From the IMG/VR virus record IMGVR_UViG_3300029288_000120, positions 1-64,000 of that record: DNA of 64,000 bases; one strand, given 5' to 3'. Source of the stretch: a virus (taxonomy: Duplodnaviria; Caudoviricetes). The notes beneath the pieces are model-generated. The model was given only the letters and a program-made list of their open reading frames with translations, searched no databases and was not told where the DNA came from. Below, one piece after another: positions 5,215 to 64,000 of the stretch. The position numbers were made by a program, and so were the translations under genes. Positions within the stretch are counted from its first letter, which is position 1, and each line of letters begins with the position of its first letter.

Positions 5215-5597
5215 AGTTTTTTACACTACTAAAGCAACTCATGGCTAAGGTTGAGTATAGTAGGGCTCAACGGTTTGCTAAGGAGTGGGAAAAGTCTGCA
5301 AAAGAATTGATAGCTGTACTAGGGAAGAAAGAAGATATTCTAATTTCCAAATCGGTTGCTATCAAGGAGCTAATAGCAACAATTGAAGACGAACTTAAAA
5401 AAGCCAAAGCTCTCAATGTTAAGTATGAGACAGCTTTGGATGCTTTGCGAAATGAAAACAAGGTTATGTCCGAAGTAACAATCCCAGCACTGACAGCTTC
5501 TTGCCAGTTGGGACTTGAGCGTTGGCGGGCAGAAACAGCCATTCAAGTTCGTAGACAAGTAGCCGCTTCCAATATCAATAAGGAGTCGAGTAGATAA
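5211..5597 (+). CDS. Coiled-coil hypothetical protein
   Basis: Heptad-rich; overlaps both neighbours (ATGA, TAATG). Confidence 0.65.
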   Translation: MKFFTLLKQLMAKVEYSRAQRFAKEWEKSAKELIAVLGKKEDILISKSVAIKELIATIEDELKKAKALNVKYETALDALRNENKVMSEVTIPALTASCQLGLERWRAETAIQVRRQVAASNINKESSR

Positions 5598-37852: not shown

Positions 37853-38361
37853 TTGATGTTGAACTTTTTCAATTTGCAGCACCCCAATCTGCTGGGGTGG
37901 ATTACTACCTGAGGGTTTTGAAGGCAGTGGGCTTAGAAGTTGGCTTGCCTTCTGAAGCCCTTGAACCTTGGAAGGAGAAGGAGAAATCTAAGGGTATCTT
38001 GAGGGTATCATTAGTAAGACATCCATTGGATTTTATGTACAAGGGATGGCAGTTGCAAAAGAAGCAACATCCCATGACTCCCAATTTCTGTGATTGTATG
38101 CTTTTATACGTTAGGGGAAATTGCTCAGTAAATGTAGCGAAGATTTACGAGTCATATGATGCCAACGTTGTGCAAAGATGGGAAGACTGCCCTTGGGCAT
38201 TGATTGAGTTTTTTGATTCCCTAGGAATTCCCAGGTCATTATCAATGAAGGCAAGAAATGTGGAAAAGGAAGTCAGTGTAATTCCTCAATTACCCAAGTA
38301 CCTGCTGGAGGAATTCAAACAGTTAGAACAAGAAGTTTACAATAGATACGATTATTGGTAG
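37849..38361 (+). CDS. Degenerate sulfotransferase-like protein
   Basis: LVRHPLD (3'-PB-like) and RWED; 5'-PSB loop degenerate. Confidence 0.45.
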   Translation: MIDVELFQFAAPQSAGVDYYLRVLKAVGLEVGLPSEALEPWKEKEKSKGILRVSLVRHPLDFMYKGWQLQKKQHPMTPNFCDCMLLYVRGNCSVNVAKIYESYDANVVQRWEDCPWALIEFFDSLGIPRSLSMKARNVEKEVSVIPQLPKYLLEEFKQLEQEVYNRYDYW

Positions 38362-38372
38362 GAAGAACAATT

Positions 38373-39116
38373 ATGAGAGTAGATTTCGTTACACATTGCT
38401 ATGCAAAGCAGTTTCCCCACTTTGCTGCTGCCTTGTACTTACAGTTATCGACAATATGCAATCAGGTTTCAACCAAGCACCAAGCAAGTATTACTGTTTT
38501 CTATTGTGAGGAAGATAGACATACTTGCAATGTTTTGAATCTATTTAGTGATAGCAAAAGAACAAAGTCAGCTACTTTGGCTTGTGTTCCTATGAGAGTA
38601 GAGAATCTAGGAAGGAGATCAATAGGAAGAAACTTTGCAGCAGAAAATACCAGTGCTGATTATGTATGGTTTACCGATGTAGATTATTGGTTTGATGCAA
38701 ATGTAGTCGATGATTTGTGTACTATGCAGTGGCCGAAAGATGCTGTAATGGTATTCCCTCAAAATATCAATATCAGCAAGACGCACGAACTTGGTGACAA
38801 ATTACTAAAGTACTATGCAGGAGTTTATGAAGGTACTACTGGTTCTGTTCCTTACACACCAAATCTACAGGTGAGGGACTATTGTGATAAAACCTACTAC
38901 AAAGCCATTGGTGGCGTACAAATCGTTAAAGGATCATTTGCTACAGAGAATGGTTATGTGCGTGGAGGTAAATGGCAGATACCCTCCACCAAGCCATTCG
39001 GGGACTTCAAGGATGACATAGCATACCGAAATGCTTGTCGTCTGTTAGGAAAAATAGTACCAGTTGAATTGAAAGGTGTCTACCGTATAAGACATACGGA
39101 GACAAGTTATCAGTGA
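38373..39116 (+). CDS. GT2-like glycosyltransferase
   Basis: RSIGRN.AA...ADYVWFTDVD, GG, DD..Y, H. Confidence 0.7.
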   Translation: MRVDFVTHCYAKQFPHFAAALYLQLSTICNQVSTKHQASITVFYCEEDRHTCNVLNLFSDSKRTKSATLACVPMRVENLGRRSIGRNFAAENTSADYVWFTDVDYWFDANVVDDLCTMQWPKDAVMVFPQNINISKTHELGDKLLKYYAGVYEGTTGSVPYTPNLQVRDYCDKTYYKAIGGVQIVKGSFATENGYVRGGKWQIPSTKPFGDFKDDIAYRNACRLLGKIVPVELKGVYRIRHTETSYQ

Positions 39117-39802: not shown

Positions 39803-40075
39803 ATGGGTGAGCTAACTAGCGTAAAGTACAACAAAATTCTTCTATCTTATGCTGAGTTGCGAAAGGTATTTGGATCTCGTCTTGCTTCAATAAGAAAGAA
39901 CCGGGGATGGACGCAGGAGGTACTGGCATCCAAGTTTGGCACCACCCAAGAAACCATTGCTATATGGGAAGGCAACAAGCAACTCCCCTCACGAAAGAAC
40001 GTAGACAAACTCTGCAAACTCTTGCACATTGACAGGTTCTTTTTCGAACGTGTTGAATCTAATGTGCTTAAATAG
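39803..40075 (+). CDS. XRE-family HTH regulator
   Basis: IRKNRGWTQEVLA...TQETIAIWEGNKQLP. Confidence 0.85.
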   Translation: MGELTSVKYNKILLSYAELRKVFGSRLASIRKNRGWTQEVLASKFGTTQETIAIWEGNKQLPSRKNVDKLCKLLHIDRFFFERVESNVLK

Positions 40076-40193
40076 ATAGTATATCTCTAATATACACTAT
40101 GTGATTTTCAGGGGATTTCTTAGTTTATAGGAAAATTCCTAGAAAAATTCTTGTTTATTTTGGTTATTTTTGCACCATTTCTCCCTGTTGGTA

Positions 40194-40222
40194 TGGACAG
40201 TTATATGGTTTTGACACATAAT
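40194..40222 (+). promoter_or_regulatory. Sigma70-type promoter for the ncRNA and early operon
   Basis: TGGACA-17 bp-CATAAT preceded by an AT-rich tract. Confidence 0.55.
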
Positions 40223-40225
40223 GAT

Positions 40226-40240
40226 AACATCATTGATGTT
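40226..40240. promoter_or_regulatory. Palindromic operator candidate
   Basis: AACATCA-T-TGATGTT over the predicted transcription start. Confidence 0.45.
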
Positions 40241-40650
40241 TGAAATCCTGAAAGGCAGCCGATTGGCAAGGAGTATTTTGCATAGCCCATTTGAGTCCGA
40301 GCGGAGTTAGGGTATGCAAAAGAAAGAACCGGAAATGACCGGGCAAGGGGAAGTTAGTAACGAACGTGAAAACTCCCATTCGCAGTCGATTGGCTCCCAG
40401 CCTAACAAAGCAGGTTTCACCAGGAACCATGAACAATGAGCCTGGTCCCCCTGAGATCAACAGTAGTTGCTAGGGTGAGTTGAAGCTGAGCAGTGGAGGG
40501 TTGGTGACACAAGAGTGTCACTTTCAAACAAAGGATAGTTGTGGTCGACTAACACGGGAATGATTCGATCATAATTGAGCACAGTGGGTAAGCAGTAGCA
40601 AGAATCGAAACAGTCGAAACAATCCCAGTCGAACGACAGAGTGGATTGTT
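40229..40650 (+). ncRNA. Large structured non-coding RNA of unknown class
   Basis: No + strand ORF in the track; about ten nested or serial stems, several with G-U pairs; bounded by a promoter and a hammerhead cleavage site. Confidence 0.6.
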
Positions 40651-40689
40651 CACTGTAACTGGCTATTACAGTGCTGATGAGACAAGCCA
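40613..40689 (+). ncRNA. Type II hammerhead ribozyme
   Basis: GAAA 40616-19, CUGAUGA 40674-80; stems I (8 bp), II (3 bp) and III (7 bp); GUU cleavage triplet; loop I-3' tail pseudoknot. Confidence 0.88.
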
Positions 40690-40719
40690 AGCAAACTCTT
40701 ATTTTAGGAGAGAAGAACA

Positions 40720-41382
40720 ATGTTAGATTTAGTAGTGGGACAAAAAGTCATTTATATTCCACATTATGGTGAAATGCCAAGAATAGCAACGATTACTAAG
40801 GTGTTGAAAACACGTTTCGAAATCAAGGATGAGAATGGCATAATCAAAACAAGATTTGAAGTGAATAGCTGTGGAGTGGATGGGCAAACATTTTACGCAT
40901 ATGGAACTAGAAAGAGCGGGATGGTTGTTGTTTACACTGAAGAGAACATGAAGAAGTTTACGGAAATGGCCCAACAGGAGATTAGCAGAGAGAAAGAAAA
41001 GAAGGAACGACAAGAGAAGGCTAGACTTGAACGAGATATCGAACAGAAGAAACAGATTGAGGAAGTAAAAGAACTGTATCTGCCTGATGACTGGAATGAA
41101 AGAATTCAAAATGAGATTCTCCCAGGGGATCAAAAGATGTATGTCATCAATATGCCAATCCATCCACGATATGTGGAAAACAAAGGATCGTGGGAAAGAT
41201 TAATTGTCAGAATCAAGAAGGAAGAAAGTTGGAGTTGGCAAAAGGCGGGGATGGCATATATGACGTATACTACTTGGGCAAACGAGAAAAGTCAATCCTT
41301 CTCTTCCTGTACAGGTATCAACTATGAGACAGAGGAGGAGGCATTGTGGGACAGTATTCGTAGATGCTACTTTTCATGGTAA
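40720..41382 (+). CDS. Hypothetical early protein
   Basis: AGGAG RBS; first gene after the ribozyme. Confidence 0.7.
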   Translation: MLDLVVGQKVIYIPHYGEMPRIATITKVLKTRFEIKDENGIIKTRFEVNSCGVDGQTFYAYGTRKSGMVVVYTEENMKKFTEMAQQEISREKEKKERQEKARLERDIEQKKQIEEVKELYLPDDWNERIQNEILPGDQKMYVINMPIHPRYVENKGSWERLIVRIKKEESWSWQKAGMAYMTYTTWANEKSQSFSSCTGINYETEEEALWDSIRRCYFSW

Positions 41383-41984: not shown

Positions 41985-42293
41985 ATGCCTTGTTACGAAG
42001 TACGAATGATAAGTGTCAAGTTCAAGATAGGAAATGCTTCCTTGCTTGAACAAGCACTCAAGTCACTGGGCTTGATGCACACAGTTTTTCCAAACCGGAA
42101 ATTGATAACGACAGAAGGCATTTCCCTTGACCTGGAATCGGGCAAAGCCATTGTTTTGGATGGTTACCAAGACAGGTTAAACCAAATCAAACAAGCCTAT
42201 AGCCGCGAGGCGGTCAAAGTAGCGGCCAAGAAGTTTGCCTGGGCAACAAAAACTCAGGGCAGTAACATCACAGTCAACAAAGTGAGGTGGTAA
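41985..42293 (+). CDS. DUF1257/Ycf35-like protein
   Basis: LLEQALKSLG ... IKQAYS...V...AKK..W; near the AAA ATPase. Confidence 0.55.
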   Translation: MPCYEVRMISVKFKIGNASLLEQALKSLGLMHTVFPNRKLITTEGISLDLESGKAIVLDGYQDRLNQIKQAYSREAVKVAAKKFAWATKTQGSNITVNKVRW

Positions 42294-52767: not shown

Positions 52768-53646
52768 ATGGACATAACCGAGATTCTTGCAGAGAGTAAT
52801 ATAGAGTACAAAGAGGCAGGTGCCCACCATCATACCCGACCGGGATGGGTAAACATTGATTGTCCAATGTGTGGTAGGGGATCAGGTAAATTCCATTTGG
52901 GTATAAACATCTCTCATGGTTATGCCAACTGTTGGAAGTGTGGACCTATCTCTCTCTTTACTATACTAAGGGAATTGACCAGTGCTTCTTATGAAGAGAT
53001 AAAGGAAGTAACAAGGGGCTATCATGGAAGAGTAGAGAAGGGCAAGAAGAAAACAGGCAAGTTAAAGATTCCTGATAACCTCACACCTTTATCAAAACAA
53101 GCTATAGAGTATCTTGTTAGTAGAAACTTCAATCCCAAAACCATAGAGAGATTGTGGCAGGTAAGATCAACAGGTTGCATAGGTCGTCTGCAATGGAGGA
53201 TATGGATACCCATATACTATCAAGGACAAGTGGTAAGCTGGACAACAAGGGCTATAGGCAATGATTCTACCAGGTATGTTACAGCTAAGCCAGAAGAGGA
53301 AAGCATGTTCCACAAGCACCTGTTGTATGGTGAGGATTATGTGAGGCATTCGATTGTAGTTACTGAGGGACCCCTTGATGTATGGGCCCTCGGCCCCGGG
53401 GCTGTTTGCACGTTTGGGCTAAATTTTTCGATTGAACAGGTGGAAAAGATATCCAAATATGCAGTTCGCACTATATGCTTTGACGCCGACAATGATCCCA
53501 AAACGCAGCAGAGGGCTAGTATGTTGTCAAAACAATTGGAGCCGTTCCCTGGTGTCACAAACGTCGTTAAATTGGAGTCTGGCAAGGATCTGGCTGAGTG
53601 TGCAGGGTGGGAATTGAATGATATTCGCAGATTATATTTAATATAG
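52768..53646 (+). CDS. DNA primase (Zn finger + TOPRIM)
   Basis: CPMC...CWKC, VTEGPLD, CFDAD, KD. Confidence 0.85.
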   Translation: MDITEILAESNIEYKEAGAHHHTRPGWVNIDCPMCGRGSGKFHLGINISHGYANCWKCGPISLFTILRELTSASYEEIKEVTRGYHGRVEKGKKKTGKLKIPDNLTPLSKQAIEYLVSRNFNPKTIERLWQVRSTGCIGRLQWRIWIPIYYQGQVVSWTTRAIGNDSTRYVTAKPEEESMFHKHLLYGEDYVRHSIVVTEGPLDVWALGPGAVCTFGLNFSIEQVEKISKYAVRTICFDADNDPKTQQRASMLSKQLEPFPGVTNVVKLESGKDLAECAGWELNDIRRLYLI

Positions 53647-53685
53647 AATATTTAATATGTGATATTTAATACATTAAATATTCTA
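53644..53685. repeat. AT-rich 13-bp inverted repeat with ATATTTAAT repeats
   Basis: TAGAATATTTAAT ... ATTAAATATTCTA. Confidence 0.7.
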
Positions 53686-53718
53686 AAAAATCCCTATTTG
53701 GACTACTTTTTATTTGAC

Positions 53719-53886
53719 TATAATAAGAGGAGATTTGAAAAACAAAAGGCGTTGTGGCACTCAATGTCTTTCCAAAAACATGAAGCAAGCCAATGCTATT
53801 ATCTTTTGAAATTATGATTACTTGCTGGCTGTTTTTGGAAAGCCACTTGACCCACCCCGGTGCCAAAATGGGGTGGGTTTCTTTTT
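53719..53886 (+). promoter_or_regulatory. Promoter + structured leader + terminator (attenuator or sRNA) before the replication genes
   Basis: TATAAT 53719; 13-bp stem 53768-80/53830-42; terminator ACCCACCCC/GGGGTGGGT followed by TTCTTTTT. Confidence 0.6.
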
Positions 53887-53897
53887 CCGTATAGCAT

Positions 53898-54488
53898 ATG
53901 GGCATAAATATGATAGATGACTACAACTCTTTTACAATTGAAGGATATGGTGTATCTGCCAGGATACACAATCTATTCAAGAATGGTGTTATCAACTCAA
54001 AGGAAATGATGCTTCTCGCTCTGGTAGATTCCTATACTAGCGAGGATGAAGATGATGAGCGTGAAGAATACTTGTGTATAGATGCTTGCCTACTGGCAGA
54101 TTTTCTTGGCATTTCCGAAGCCAGAACACATAAAAGCATACGTCATCTCATAAGGCTACACTTACTACAAGTGTTACAAGATGAGGATGACGATCTCTGC
54201 CTCAAGGTATTAGATCCCAAGCAGAAGGGAATTGGTTTGTGGATATCTGAGTATGCCATGAGGAGGTTTTATGATGGTGATGTAAATCTAAGGGAGGCTG
54301 CAATGCTTTCAATCATTGAAGACTTTACAATGGAGAACAGAGAATGCCCCATTTCTAACAGTGAGTTTGCTCAAAGACTGAGAGCATCCATCCCCTCAGT
54401 ACAGGTTATGTTACAACACTTGCAAAAGCAGGGTCTAGTTGAGAGAATTAGATATGATGGAAAAATTCGTTATCTAAAAATTTGTTAA
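53898..54488 (+). CDS. Tandem winged-HTH protein related to the initiator N-terminus
   Basis: Two internal repeats (IN..E..LL..., LA..LGIS) matching the N-terminus of 54518..55552. Confidence 0.7.
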   Translation: MGINMIDDYNSFTIEGYGVSARIHNLFKNGVINSKEMMLLALVDSYTSEDEDDEREEYLCIDACLLADFLGISEARTHKSIRHLIRLHLLQVLQDEDDDLCLKVLDPKQKGIGLWISEYAMRRFYDGDVNLREAAMLSIIEDFTMENRECPISNSEFAQRLRASIPSVQVMLQHLQKQGLVERIRYDGKIRYLKIC

Positions 54489-54517: not shown

Positions 54518-55552
54518 ATGGCTAAAGAAAAAGAATGTGGTATTTGGATCTCACCCACTGTAAGAAAATTGATGAAAATGAAAATCATCAATTGCATGGA
54601 AGGTTTGTTGCTAGCACATATTGAGTACCTAGAAAACGGAGAAGGTTGCTTTGCTTCCAACAGTTACTACTCAGAAGAATTGGGTATTAGCACCACTTGG
54701 GTGAGTGTAACAATTGCTAAATTGAGGAAGAAAAAATTGATAGTACAGACTGGACCAAACAACAAAAAAAGGCACTTGAAAGTGTGTTTTTCTGGGGTGG
54801 AATGCTTTGAAGTACCCTTAAAGGCCCGCTTTGAAGTACCCTTAAAGGCCCGCTTTGAAGTACCCTTAAAGGCCTATAATAATAAAGAGAATGAATATAG
54901 AGAAATAAAAGATAAATTTATTGACATAAATTTATGTCCGGCTGAAAGCCAGACACTTGCTGAAGAAACTTCTGAAATACTTAATGGAGGAGATGATACA
55001 GTGAAGAAATTAAGTAAGGCCATTTCAAGTAATCAAACTGGTTTTGGTTTAGTTGATAATACCAAAAAGAAGTCATCCACCAAAAAATCAGAATTCCCAT
55101 TATCTGAGTTTGATAAAGAGCAAGGAGTTGAGTTAAGAACTATTTTAGTAGAGCAAGGTTCAGATTTGGTCACTACAGGTTATAAAGCATCACCAGGAAA
55201 ATGTAAGAAAGGCAGTAAAAGACCAAAAAGAAACTATTCAAAGGCAGTTACCCCAGAGACATTGGCAGAGAACTTTTACTTACTAAGAAAGGAGAGAAAT
55301 GTTTCTGAGAAAGAGATAATGGAAGTAATGGAATTCCTTTCCAGAGAATCCAATGGTCAATTTACTCCCAAAGTGTATGCCGCTATGGATCTGTACAATA
55401 AGTGGGAAAGGTTTAGAGATGCTGTGAAGAGATCAGAAGATAGGGAGTTATGTGGAAGTGGAAGTTCCCCAAGAAATAATGCAGTAGGAATGCTTAAGCG
55501 GGCTGGATTTTCTAGAGAGGAGATACATGAGTATGTCTACGGGAAAAACTAA
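54518..55552 (+). CDS. Replication initiator (lambda O-like architecture)
   Basis: CFASNSYYSEELGIS wHTH; internal iterons; upstream of loader and DnaB genes. Confidence 0.75.
   Translation: MAKEKECGIWISPTVRKLMKMKIINCMEGLLLAHIEYLENGEGCFASNSYYSEELGISTTWVSVTIAKLRKKKLIVQTGPNNKKRHLKVCFSGVECFEVPLKARFEVPLKARFEVPLKAYNNKENEYREIKDKFIDINLCPAESQTLAEETSEILNGGDDTVKKLSKAISSNQTGFGLVDNTKKKSSTKKSEFPLSEFDKEQGVELRTILVEQGSDLVTTGYKASPGKCKKGSKRPKRNYSKAVTPETLAENFYLLRKERNVSEKEIMEVMEFLSRESNGQFTPKVYAAMDLYNKWERFRDAVKRSEDRELCGSGSSPRNNAVGMLKRAGFSREEIHEYVYGKN
54804..54874. repeat. Three 24-bp iterons; probable replication origin
   Basis: GCTTTGAAGTACCCTTAAAGGCC(C) x3, followed by an AT-rich tract and the palindrome GACATAAATTTATGTC. 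Confidence 0.8.
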
Positions 55553-62703: not shown

Positions 62704-63670
62704 GTTAAAGAAGTTGTCCTTGGGGTTATCACAGCGAGAAATCATTGAGCAAGCTTCATGTTTCGTTATTAAGGATGGTATGATCCATTCGTTTAATGAC
62801 GAAATCTCTTGTCGGTGTCCATGCGAGTTGAAAATGGATGGGGCTTTCAATGCCAATACTCTTTTAGCAATTCTTGGAAGAATGGATGAGAAGAAGATTG
62901 ATATAGAGTGCGTGGATGAGAACATTGTGATACAAGGCAAGAAAAAGAAGGTTAGGATTGTTCTTAATAAGGAAGTTTTGCTAGCCATTGACAGTGTAGA
63001 AATGCCTAAGAAGTGGAGGAAACTTCCTGAAGAGTTTGTGAAGGCAATTTCTTTGGCAAGGCAATGTGTTTCTAGGGATGAATCCCAGTTCATAGTAACC
63101 TGTGTGCATATCCATAAGGATTGGATAGAAGCATGTGATGATTTTCAAGCTATCAGGTATACCATGAGCACTGGATTTGATAGTTCCATTCTAGTTAGAG
63201 GTGATTCTATCAAGGGAATATTGGATTTGGACATTAAGGAGTTTGGGGAGACAGAACACTGGGTACACTTTAGGGATGGTTCTGGGTTCATTATGAGTTG
63301 TAAGAGATACATGGAGAAATACCCAGATACGTCAAAGATATTTGAGATTGAAGGTGTTCCTATGAAGCTTCCGGAGGGTTTAAGCGAGGCGGCCAAAAGG
63401 GCACAAGTTTTTTCTAATGATGGTTCTAATGAGAGTCTATTGACTCTATCATTGAAAGAGGGAAAACTAAAAATTACTGGAAAGGGTGTTACTGGTTGGT
63501 ATGACGAAATAAAGGAAGTAGAGTATGAAGGACAGCCGATTTCTCTTTTCATATCACCTAGCATTTTGATGGATATATTCTCATATGGAAGAAAATGTGA
63601 AGTTAGTAAGGATAGGCTGAAGATAAGAAGAAAAAACTACACCTATGTTGCTGTTGCAAGCAAGGAGTAG
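62666..63670 (+). CDS. DNA polymerase III beta sliding clamp-like protein
   Basis: ~330 aa; ACDDFQ (cf. ATDGHR), KYPD; clamp-like repeat pattern. Confidence 0.7.
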   Translation: MVMEVGRKDLLDKLKKLSLGLSQREIIEQASCFVIKDGMIHSFNDEISCRCPCELKMDGAFNANTLLAILGRMDEKKIDIECVDENIVIQGKKKKVRIVLNKEVLLAIDSVEMPKKWRKLPEEFVKAISLARQCVSRDESQFIVTCVHIHKDWIEACDDFQAIRYTMSTGFDSSILVRGDSIKGILDLDIKEFGETEHWVHFRDGSGFIMSCKRYMEKYPDTSKIFEIEGVPMKLPEGLSEAAKRAQVFSNDGSNESLLTLSLKEGKLKITGKGVTGWYDEIKEVEYEGQPISLFISPSILMDIFSYGRKCEVSKDRLKIRRKNYTYVAVASKE

Positions 63671-63675
63671 GAGGA

Positions 63676-64000
63676 ATGGGTTTCTTTTCATCTGAGTTGC
63701 GTGATAGTTATTCCTTGTTAAGTACTCAGTGTGGTAAATGTAAATTGGATCGTGGCTGCATCACACCCAAAATGCAACCAACAGGAGCAGGTAGGAAGGG
63801 TATTCTGATAGTTGCGGAAGCCCCTGGAGAAAAGGAGGATAGAGAAGGTATACAGTTAATAGGAAAAGCAGGGCAGTTGTTGAGAAAGTATCTTGGGGAA
63901 CTCGATATTAAACTGGATAGGGATTGTTGGAAAACCAATGCAGTAAACTGTAGACCAAAGGAAAACAGAACTCCAAAACCCAAGGAAATAGAAGCTTGTC
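63676..64000 (+). CDS. Family 4 uracil-DNA glycosylase domain (truncated at the window end)
   Basis: CGKCKL, VAEAPGEKED, GKAGQLL, TNAVNCRP..NRTP...EI.AC; AGGAGG RBS. Confidence 0.85.
   Translation, partial: MGFFSSELRDSYSLLSTQCGKCKLDRGCITPKMQPTGAGRKGILIVAEAPGEKEDREGIQLIGKAGQLLRKYLGELDIKLDRDCWKTNAVNCRPKENRTPKPKEIEAC

Follow-up and report, generated by a model that had tools for sequence, protein, structure and literature searches.

A folded untranslated RNA between a promoter-like site and a predicted hammerhead ribozyme at the head of a putative phage early operon

Genomic context of the untranslated stretch

The window analysed here comprises the first 64 kb of the 93,208-bp viral record IMGVR_UViG_3300029288_000120 (Duplodnaviria; Caudoviricetes), and the subject of this study is a stretch of about 422 nt at positions 40229–40650 on its + strand. 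The stretch is non-coding, its RNA folds in a strand-specific manner, and its predicted boundaries are sound, namely a sigma-70-like promoter on the 5′ side and a type II hammerhead ribozyme on the 3′ side, whereby the ribozyme is ordinary and the body is new, lying outside the known RNA families. All credible genes of the window are on the + strand, and 40076–40719 (644 nt) is the longest + strand gap without an open reading frame (ORF) of at least 60 aa. The next-longest gaps measure 330, 251, 245 and 199 nt, the first of them (63671–64000) being situated at the cut end of the window, where an ORF runs off. An earlier reading made from the sequence alone (hereafter the sequence-only reading) had called this the only long ORF-free stretch, and the gap lengths bear it out. 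The GC content is 47% in the leader region vs 41% window-wide, and a blastn search of the gap against 50,697 phage records gave no match. The gap is flanked by two genes:

39803–40075, + strand: gene of an XRE-type helix-turn-helix (HTH) regulator of 90 aa, directly upstream of the gap (Pfam HTH_19/HTH_3; PHROG transcriptional regulators)
40720–41382, + strand: first early gene, an orphan of 220 aa without Pfam or PHROG match

A search with the HTH protein recovered nothing beyond its own cluster. The first early protein had no relatives in viral contigs and only its own cluster among 5.8 billion proteins. Farther downstream, there are genes for an AAA ATPase, a DUF3150 protein and a protein with a weak sigma-factor PHROG match. 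The placement after late/modification genes and the XRE-type regulator, and before the AAA ATPase, DUF3150 and possible sigma-like genes, fits an early operon. A tandem repeat with a near-palindromic core, TAGGAAAATTC / TAGAAAAATTC, is present upstream of the promoter at 40128–40150 and is a candidate operator for the adjoining HTH protein.

Predicted transcript ends and the hammerhead ribozyme

Three features define the predicted transcript in the gap:

40194–40222, + strand: sigma-70-like promoter TGGACA-17-CATAAT found by promoter scan, 10 of 12 consensus positions, −10 hexamer at 40217–40222
40613–40691, + strand: type II hammerhead found with Rfam RF02276 and our own descriptor scan, cut predicted after U40650
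40651–40719, + strand: 5′ untranslated region (UTR) expected to stay on the mRNA after the cut, with a 5′-OH end, the stem I hairpin and a Shine-Dalgarno sequence AGGAG at 40706–40710, as read from the sequence

Both boundaries proposed by the sequence-only reading were recovered in this way. Judging from the promoter position, the RNA would start near 40229. Both promoter hexamers are identical in a close variant of the locus (contig L102, see below), and the more distant relatives have a comparable promoter in the same relative place.

The RF02276 (Hammerhead_II) match at 40612–40691 scored 32 bits (E 1.6e-4 in the isolated 711-nt region), which is under the Rfam gathering threshold of 37 bits because of a 12-nt insertion in the loop of stem III. 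All core nucleotides are present, with CUGAUGA at 40674–40680 and GAAA at 40616–40619; the cleavage triplet is GUU, with a non-G at the site and an A-U pair closing stem III. Stem I consists of 8 bp (40651–40658/40666–40673) and a 7-nt loop, stem III of 7 bp (40619–40625/40643–40649) holding the inserted hairpin, and stem II (GUC/GAC) is open, stems I and III being loop-closed. A 4-bp pseudoknot, GGCU/AGCC, connects loop I (CUGGCUA) with the 3′ tail AGCC at 40685–40688, and this tail agrees with the AGCCaAAg tail of the type II model (Perreault et al., 2011, PMC3088659).

The descriptor scan of both strands of the window returned 40613–40691 as the sole type II candidate, and two weak type III candidates with 2-bp stems (54935–54979 and 63540–63635) were taken as chance. 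Searching the whole 93-kb record with RF02276 at E ≤1 gave no match; nor did an Rfam pass on 32000–64000 at E ≤1, which missed even the known hammerhead and is uninformative on further ribozymes. Inside the leader, extra hammerhead cores or hammerhead-like modules were sought, and nothing was found except a 71% repeat, in which the 3′ strand of the domain A helix (see below) with its flank, 40383–40406 (CAGUCGAUUGGCUCCCAGCCUAAC), resembles the 5′ half of the hammerhead, 40611–40634 (CAGUCGAAACAAUCCCAGUCGAAC). In addition, UCGAAACA is duplicated in tandem at 40605–40620.

Self-cleavage by this hammerhead is a prediction. Since a plausible promoter and a sound hammerhead bound the stretch, the expected 5′ cleavage product would be an RNA of about 422 nt (40229–40650) with a 2′,3′-cyclic phosphate end.

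Fold of the leader RNA

The elements predicted in the cleaved product are listed below with their base-pairing probabilities (P):

40229–40650, + strand: predicted structured leader RNA of about 422 nt, the 5′ cleavage product, recognised by its fold z score, null Rfam result and low divergence
40230–40241, + strand: RNA 5′ terminus, with 40577–40587 as its predicted partner (P 0.58–0.78 in the cleaved product)
40257–40267, + strand: 5′ strand of the 11-bp closing helix of domain A (P 0.96–1.0), with three G-U pairs
40276–40321, + strand: hairpin A1, UUUUGCAUA.CCC / GGG.UAUGCAAAA, with an inner UCC/GGA hairpin (P 0.86–1.0)
40329–40342, + strand: hairpin A2, CCGG-AAAUGA-CCGG (P 0.99–1.0)
40348–40377, + strand: hairpin A3, GGGA.GUU / AAC.UCCC (P 0.84–0.97)
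40385–40395, + strand: 3′ strand of the domain A closing helix, pairing with 40257–40267
40398–40503, + strand: domain B, in which CAGCCU/GGGUUG and GGUUUCA/UGAAGCU enclose ACCAGG/CCUGGU and CCCU..CAAC/GUUG..AGGG (P 0.92–0.99)
40504–40521, + strand: hairpin C, GUGACAC-AAGA-GUGUCAC (P 0.95)
40537–40576, + strand: hairpin D, whose 12-bp helix AGUUGUGGUCGA/UCGAUCAUAAUU is capped by a 16-nt loop (P 0.93)
40577–40587, + strand: 3′-proximal partner of the 5′ end, also able to pair with either strand of hammerhead stem I

The stretch had been described as highly structured, subject to a comparison with shuffled controls, and this description held: the + strand of 40229–40650 has a minimum free energy (MFE) of −133.5 kcal/mol and a z score of −4.2 (100 dinucleotide shuffles), compared to −1.95 for the − strand. 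With the same procedure, 40 other 422-nt segments of the phage had a mean z of −0.83 (standard deviation 1.38) vs −4.1 for the target, which places it about 2.4 standard deviations beyond the phage’s own background. The only segment matching the target (53500–53921, z −4.3) covers a 251-nt ORF-free leader at 53647–53897.

Ten of the 14 helices named by the sequence-only reading are well supported in the ensemble of the predicted cleavage product, mostly with P of 0.9–1.0. They include, each where it had been placed, AGCCGAUUGGC/GUCGAUUGGCU, UUUUGCAUA/UAUGCAAAA, CCGG/CCGG and GGGA(A)GUU/AACUCCC, as well as ACCAGG/CCUGGU, CCCU..CAAC/GUUG..AGGG and GUGACAC/GUGUCAC. The other four did not stand. 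Although GAAA(U)CCUG/CAGGUUUC and AGGC/GCCU, the two outer stems, consist of complementary strands, their P is near 0 and enforcing them costs 8.3 kcal/mol, while the two small hairpins UAGUUG/CGACUA and AUGAU/AUCAU are displaced by the 12-bp helix 40537–40548/40565–40576 (P 0.93).

Domain A extends over 40254–40397 and consists of three hairpins closed by the 11-bp helix, whose three G-U pairs make it specific to the + strand. The same helix is also a 12/13 direct repeat of a near-palindrome, GCAG(C/U)CGAUUGGC (also written GCAG(C/U)CGATTGGC), with the copies 127 nt apart. The 5′ end has an alternative partner at 40522–40530, a 9-nt perfect complement. A short linker separates hairpin D and the partner region of the 5′ end from the ribozyme, and in the predicted fold of the uncleaved precursor 40578–40600 pairs with the strands of hammerhead stem I.

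The body matched no Rfam 15 family at gathering thresholds (whole window) and only noise at E ≤10 (40050–40760), and ARAGORN detected no tRNA or tmRNA. Both results agree with the earlier statement that the RNA could not be assigned to tRNA, tmRNA, RNase P or an intron.

Divergence from a close variant

Cluster members of the HTH protein led to the 18-kb contig L102 and to several short contigs. L102, the same variant as in a groundwater run, is about 95% identical overall and contains the sole other copy of the leader found, 98% identical there. Over the approximately 6.3 kb compared, the leader RNA (40229–40650) has 8 differences in 422 nt (1.9%) and the post-cut UTR one in 69 nt (1.4%), vs 3.9% in the promoter region, 5.5% in the HTH gene, 8.7% in the first early gene and 3.7–31% in genes farther out, with most flanking genes at 4–17%. 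This divergence is mosaic, with 0.1% in 38355–39116, 31% in another gene (41985–42293) and 4–17% elsewhere, which indicates recent recombination between the window and L102 phage lineages.

Several substitutions keep the predicted pairs: G40388A turns a U-G into a U-A pair in the 11-bp helix, C40519U a G-C into a G-U pair in hairpin C, and A40583G together with G40584A change U-A/U-G into U-G/U-A opposite U40234 and U40233, while C40653U leaves its pair in hammerhead stem I in place. U40313C breaks or weakens one pair beside a mismatch in hairpin A1, A40548U removes a loop-closing pair, and the two remaining changes are at unpaired or weakly paired positions. In total, six transitions fall on confidently paired sites, and pairing is preserved in five of them (40388, 40519, 40583, 40584 and 40653), where about half would be expected by chance.

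Two antisense coding candidates were rejected. The 76-aa ORF at 40230–40460 gains a stop in L102, its three changes all alter residues (3/3), and it has no Pfam match; the 87-aa ORF has 4 residue changes from 6 L102 substitutions and a sub-threshold zinc-finger Pfam match (15.6 bits, cut-off 22.7).

The contigs L103, L104 and L105, which come from three assemblies, share one exact end point, 40289. In runs X3 and X4, no contig covers 40290–40647, and their unitigs resume at 40654 and 40648, beside the ribozyme cut site. Such breaks may reflect a strain-variable leader body or low coverage.

Unrelated leaders in the same place of related phages

Distant relatives were reached via the AAA ATPase encoded 3 kb downstream, the ATPases being 68–81% identical. 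The order of a regulator gene, a sigma-70-like promoter, an untranslated leader of 240–465 nt and early genes is shared by L002, L004, L012, L013, L107 and L110, and homologues of the window HTH protein sit before the leader in L002 and L012. L111 has a leader and a hammerhead-like element too, with a putative HTH-like reading frame just upstream. The arrangement of the window, in which a promoter is followed by a long ORF-free folded leader and a hammerhead right before the first early ribosome-binding site (RBS), has a counterpart in four relatives (L004, L012, L107 and L111), where the promoter and leader are followed by a hammerhead-like end before the first RBS.

These four relatives (L012 being the same as L108) make up family 1. 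Their leaders, 400–465 nt from the promoter, are mutually homologous: L004 vs L012 has a local score of 119 (shuffle maximum 44), and L004 and L107 are 72% identical over 484 nt. They have a common long-range helix with compensatory changes, and GGGAAAGCAACC is invariant. Directly before the first early gene, family 1 has a type III hammerhead-like element composed of GGGUC, a stem I hairpin, CUGAYGA, G-UUACYU-C and GAAACCC:

L004, 3049–3098; L012, 1021–1071; L107, 1163–1212; L111, 4752–4801: type III hammerhead-like element

Its stem I covaries in four of four phages and its stem II is one base pair; Rfam gave no score for this element. Searching with its stem I pattern yielded the known relatives and chance matches only.

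Family 2 (L002, L013 and L110) has leaders of 240–390 nt without a ribozyme at the end. A hairpin, GGCCAUUGCNGNCUGGCC, is common to L002 and L013; in the form GGCCAUUGC(A/G)G(U/A)CUGGCC it is found at L002:5184–5204 and L013:3985–4005, and L110:6700–6730 looks related by eye. Apart from the leaders, type II hammerheads of 30–37 bits occur between consecutive early genes at L012:1448–1515 and at L013:4876–4942 and 5366–5441, each followed by the same GGAGAC-type ribosome-binding site. In the gap before the AAA ATPase gene of L015 (3040–3100), a tRNA-like T-arm and an acceptor-like 3′ strand (GCUGGUUCGACUCCAGC ACGGUGGC) are present, and this element possibly replaces a ribozyme, as a site processed by RNase P or RNase Z.

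No homology was detectable between the window leader and the leader of any of these relatives, the local scores against family 1 being 26–30 at shuffle maxima of 29–39. A model of the 5′ domain of L004 and L012 (R1) reached 2.6 bits on the window, had no match with default filters and found nothing new in about 90 loci. The leader was not matched when a four-member family 1 nhmmer profile was run against the window, and the gap itself, searched with nhmmer against related loci totalling 755 kb, gave no match. Three weak similarities, collinear in the window and L004 and located on the most conserved blocks of family 1, were not above shuffled controls, and homology is not claimed for them. A 17-mer from the long helix occurred in five viral contigs, all chance matches confined to 17–18 nt. 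By these comparisons, the window leader is a sequence orphan in a conserved slot.

boxA-like elements at the leader starts

The boxA consensus is GYTCTTTAANA, of which C4 is needed in Escherichia coli (Baniulyte et al., 2017, PMC5725501). The most conserved 5′ block of family 1 is one or two mismatches from this consensus: GCUCUUUGACA in L004 and L107, GAUCUUUAACA in L111 and GUUCAUUGACA in L012, with 10 of 11 positions in L004/L107 and in L111. In L012 and L111 a hairpin precedes boxA.

L004, 2648–2662; L107, 750–764; L111, 4383–4397; L012, 607–621: near-consensus boxA at the early leader start
40234–40249 of the window, + strand: 5′ head UGAUGUUUGAAAUCCU, degenerate and boxA-like, where four relatives have a near-consensus boxA

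The sequence of these blocks suggests Nus-factor-dependent elongation control of the relatives’ early operons. The head of the window leader, UGAUGUUUGAAAUCC, is the best R1 match in the gap, an insignificant one (2.6 bits).

Interpretation and alternative explanations

The explanation we favour, whose case we judge to be evenly balanced, is that the stretch is a structured untranslated 5′ leader of an early operon, severed by its own hammerhead before the first early gene. Host RNA polymerase would initiate near 40229 from the sigma-70-like promoter, and the nascent RNA would form two multi-hairpin domains (40254–40397 and 40398–40503) and two hairpins, with the 5′ end pairing near 40577–40587. 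The hammerhead at 40613–40691 would then fold and cut after U40650, parting the approximately 422-nt leader, ending in a 2′,3′-cyclic phosphate, from an mRNA that begins with a 5′-OH and the stem I hairpin and has its ATG at 40720, after a UTR of 69 nt. The leader would work mainly in cis, by carrying the polymerase through a long untranslated stretch; it may also aid the loading of elongation factors, an idea suggested by the boxA-headed leaders of the related phages, and through its removal the first early message would acquire a 5′ end that is short and defined. Purines prevail in the leader (G 28%, C 19%) and most of it is paired, and a G-rich, C-poor, heavily paired RNA is expected to be a poor Rho substrate. 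By analogy, the boxA heads of the relatives point to elongation control as a common theme of these leaders. They would also lend indirect support to antitermination, one of the three functions guessed in the sequence-only reading, the others being a protein decoy and anti-defence. Moreover, the unrelated leaders at the same spot in the closest relatives fit a cis-acting leader at least as well as a discrete RNA.

A number of observations weigh against this explanation. The RNA start, the cleavage and the stability of the product are predictions, and in the MFE structure of the uncleaved precursor hammerhead stems I and II are not formed (P ≤0.01), so that cleavage would depend on co-transcriptional folding. 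The best window motif, GAUGUUUGAAA, agrees with 8 of 11 boxA positions and has G at the critical C4, which leaves it outside boxA and makes Nus-factor loading doubtful for the window phage. As the 0.1% divergence of ORF 38355–39116 illustrates, recombination could mimic conservation, and the low divergence of the leader could stem from a recent event of this kind instead of selection. The pair-keeping changes are a weak trend and not proof, since a single close variant permits no true covariation test. Finally, a cis role alone does not explain why 420 nt of specific sequence are retained.

A minority possibility that we nevertheless take seriously is a discrete and stable phage RNA that acts in trans. 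Matured by the hammerhead to about 422 nt, it would bind some factor of the host or the phage at an early stage of infection and serve as a decoy, sponge or anti-defence RNA, which would account for the tight conservation and the closed ends. Such an RNA would have defined ends, its 5′ end is predicted to pair with a 3′-proximal segment, and no other part of the locus, save one recombined gene, has diverged less; it is richer in GC than the window (47% vs 41%) and exceeds the length and folding that a plain leader needs. The sequence-unrelated RNAs of similar size in the same slot of the relatives would accord with the fast turnover expected in an arms race. However, by our own reading of the sequence no binding motif is clearly repeated (there is no enrichment of GGA; GCAAG is present 3 times vs about 0.6 expected), no conserved family was found, and relatives of the L002/L013/L110 type have no ribozyme, so release is not generally required. 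A broader version, in which many phages have unrelated, fast-evolving structured RNAs between an early promoter and a self-cleaving ribozyme, acting in trans at the onset of infection, with the window RNA as one member, is tentative and rather unlikely. There is a slim chance that the leader instead acts as a switch, in which its pairing inactivates the hammerhead or the RBS, and cleavage or a permitting signal turns on the first early gene. The precursor fold, with 40578–40600 paired to the stem I strands and stems I and II at P ≤0.01, speaks for such regulation, as do its pairings of leader UCCUGA (40246–40251) with UUAGGA at the Shine-Dalgarno site and of CAUUG (40231–40235) with the CAAUG that contains the start codon; a pairing of 40584 with 40653 would be compatible with the L102 changes at both positions, G40584A and C40653U. 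These pairings are, however, short and near-palindromic, several alternatives fit equally, and folding predictions are unreliable for RNAs of 530 nt. The co-transcriptional order favours the 5′ end capturing 40577–40587 first, and Rfam revealed no ligand-binding motif or riboswitch family.

It is hardly probable that the stretch functions as DNA, with operators for the HTH protein or an origin, or that it is a neutral spacer with an incidental fold. The strongest helix doubles as a near-palindromic direct repeat with copies 127 nt apart, the HTH regulator gene adjoins, and the relatives have unrelated sequence at this place. Against this, the repeat has just two copies; the strands fold unequally and G-U pairs are numerous, both of which argue for RNA; the divergence is below that of the coding flanks; and the ribozyme at the 3′ edge implies a region meant for transcription. 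Very improbable is a small protein encoded by the 41-aa + strand ORF at 40314–40439 (MQKKEPEMTG...), which has GGAG 7 nt upstream and is intact in L102. Its single change there is synonymous, and a lone synonymous change is of no weight; its start codon and GGAG are buried in helices (P >0.9), it has no Pfam match, and no comparable ORF was seen in the relatives’ leaders.

Significance and comparison with known systems

The purpose of hammerheads in phage operons, on record since 2011, is still unsettled, and we found no study of the released RNA in the literature. In the window, the early transcript would open with a non-coding RNA that is long, well folded and unusually conserved, and the ribozyme marks precisely where this RNA is predicted to end. 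If the cis-acting leader is the right explanation, the locus would be a natural counterpart of the ribozyme ‘insulators’ of synthetic biology and a compact model of how phages bring the host enzyme through long untranslated stretches. With a role in trans, the RNA would stand for a class of phage regulatory or counter-defence RNAs invisible to homology searches, and if such a class extends to many phages, its turnover would be much like that of anti-defence proteins at fixed loci.

The window RNA resembles ROOL, GOLLD and HEARO (Rfam) in being several hundred nt long, multi-domain, GC-enriched vs its genome and phage-borne. Unlike these, it has no Rfam 15 match (E ≤10, isolated region), and its detectable relatives amount to one 98% identical copy. 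In phage T7, a leader of several hundred nt with tandem promoters precedes the first early gene and is cut off shortly before it, at R0.3, by the host enzyme RNase III, leaving a defined, hairpin-protected message. The window would share with T7 an early-transcript leader severed just before the first early gene, but it has one promoter-like site and a built-in ribozyme.

Leaders with boxA or nut sites (rrn, lambda nutL/nutR) are similar in that the element lies close to the promoter, where a long untranslated leader begins, and a hairpin comes after it. The rrn leader, too, is cut off, in its case by RNase III. The window differs from them in its 8/11 motif and in its predicted cleavage by a ribozyme and not by a host RNase; no N-like protein or boxB was identified.

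The closest parallel to the 3′ boundary is provided by the hammerheads preceding or flanking phage and prophage genes, as reported by Perreault et al. (2011, PMC3088659), among them HHphage of the haloviruses HF1/HF2, in which the hammerhead is 13 nt before the first early gene. The window ribozyme, too, lies tens of nt before the first early start codon, is expected to make the 5′ end of the message, and has the loop I–3′ tail pseudoknot typical of type II hammerheads. The hammerheads between early genes of L012 and L013 represent the arrangement described in that publication, and the window has one convincing hammerhead only. What the available text of PMC3088659 describes are ribozymes and not a long conserved structured RNA upstream of them, whereas the window ribozyme delimits, on the 3′ side, a folded RNA about 420 nt long.

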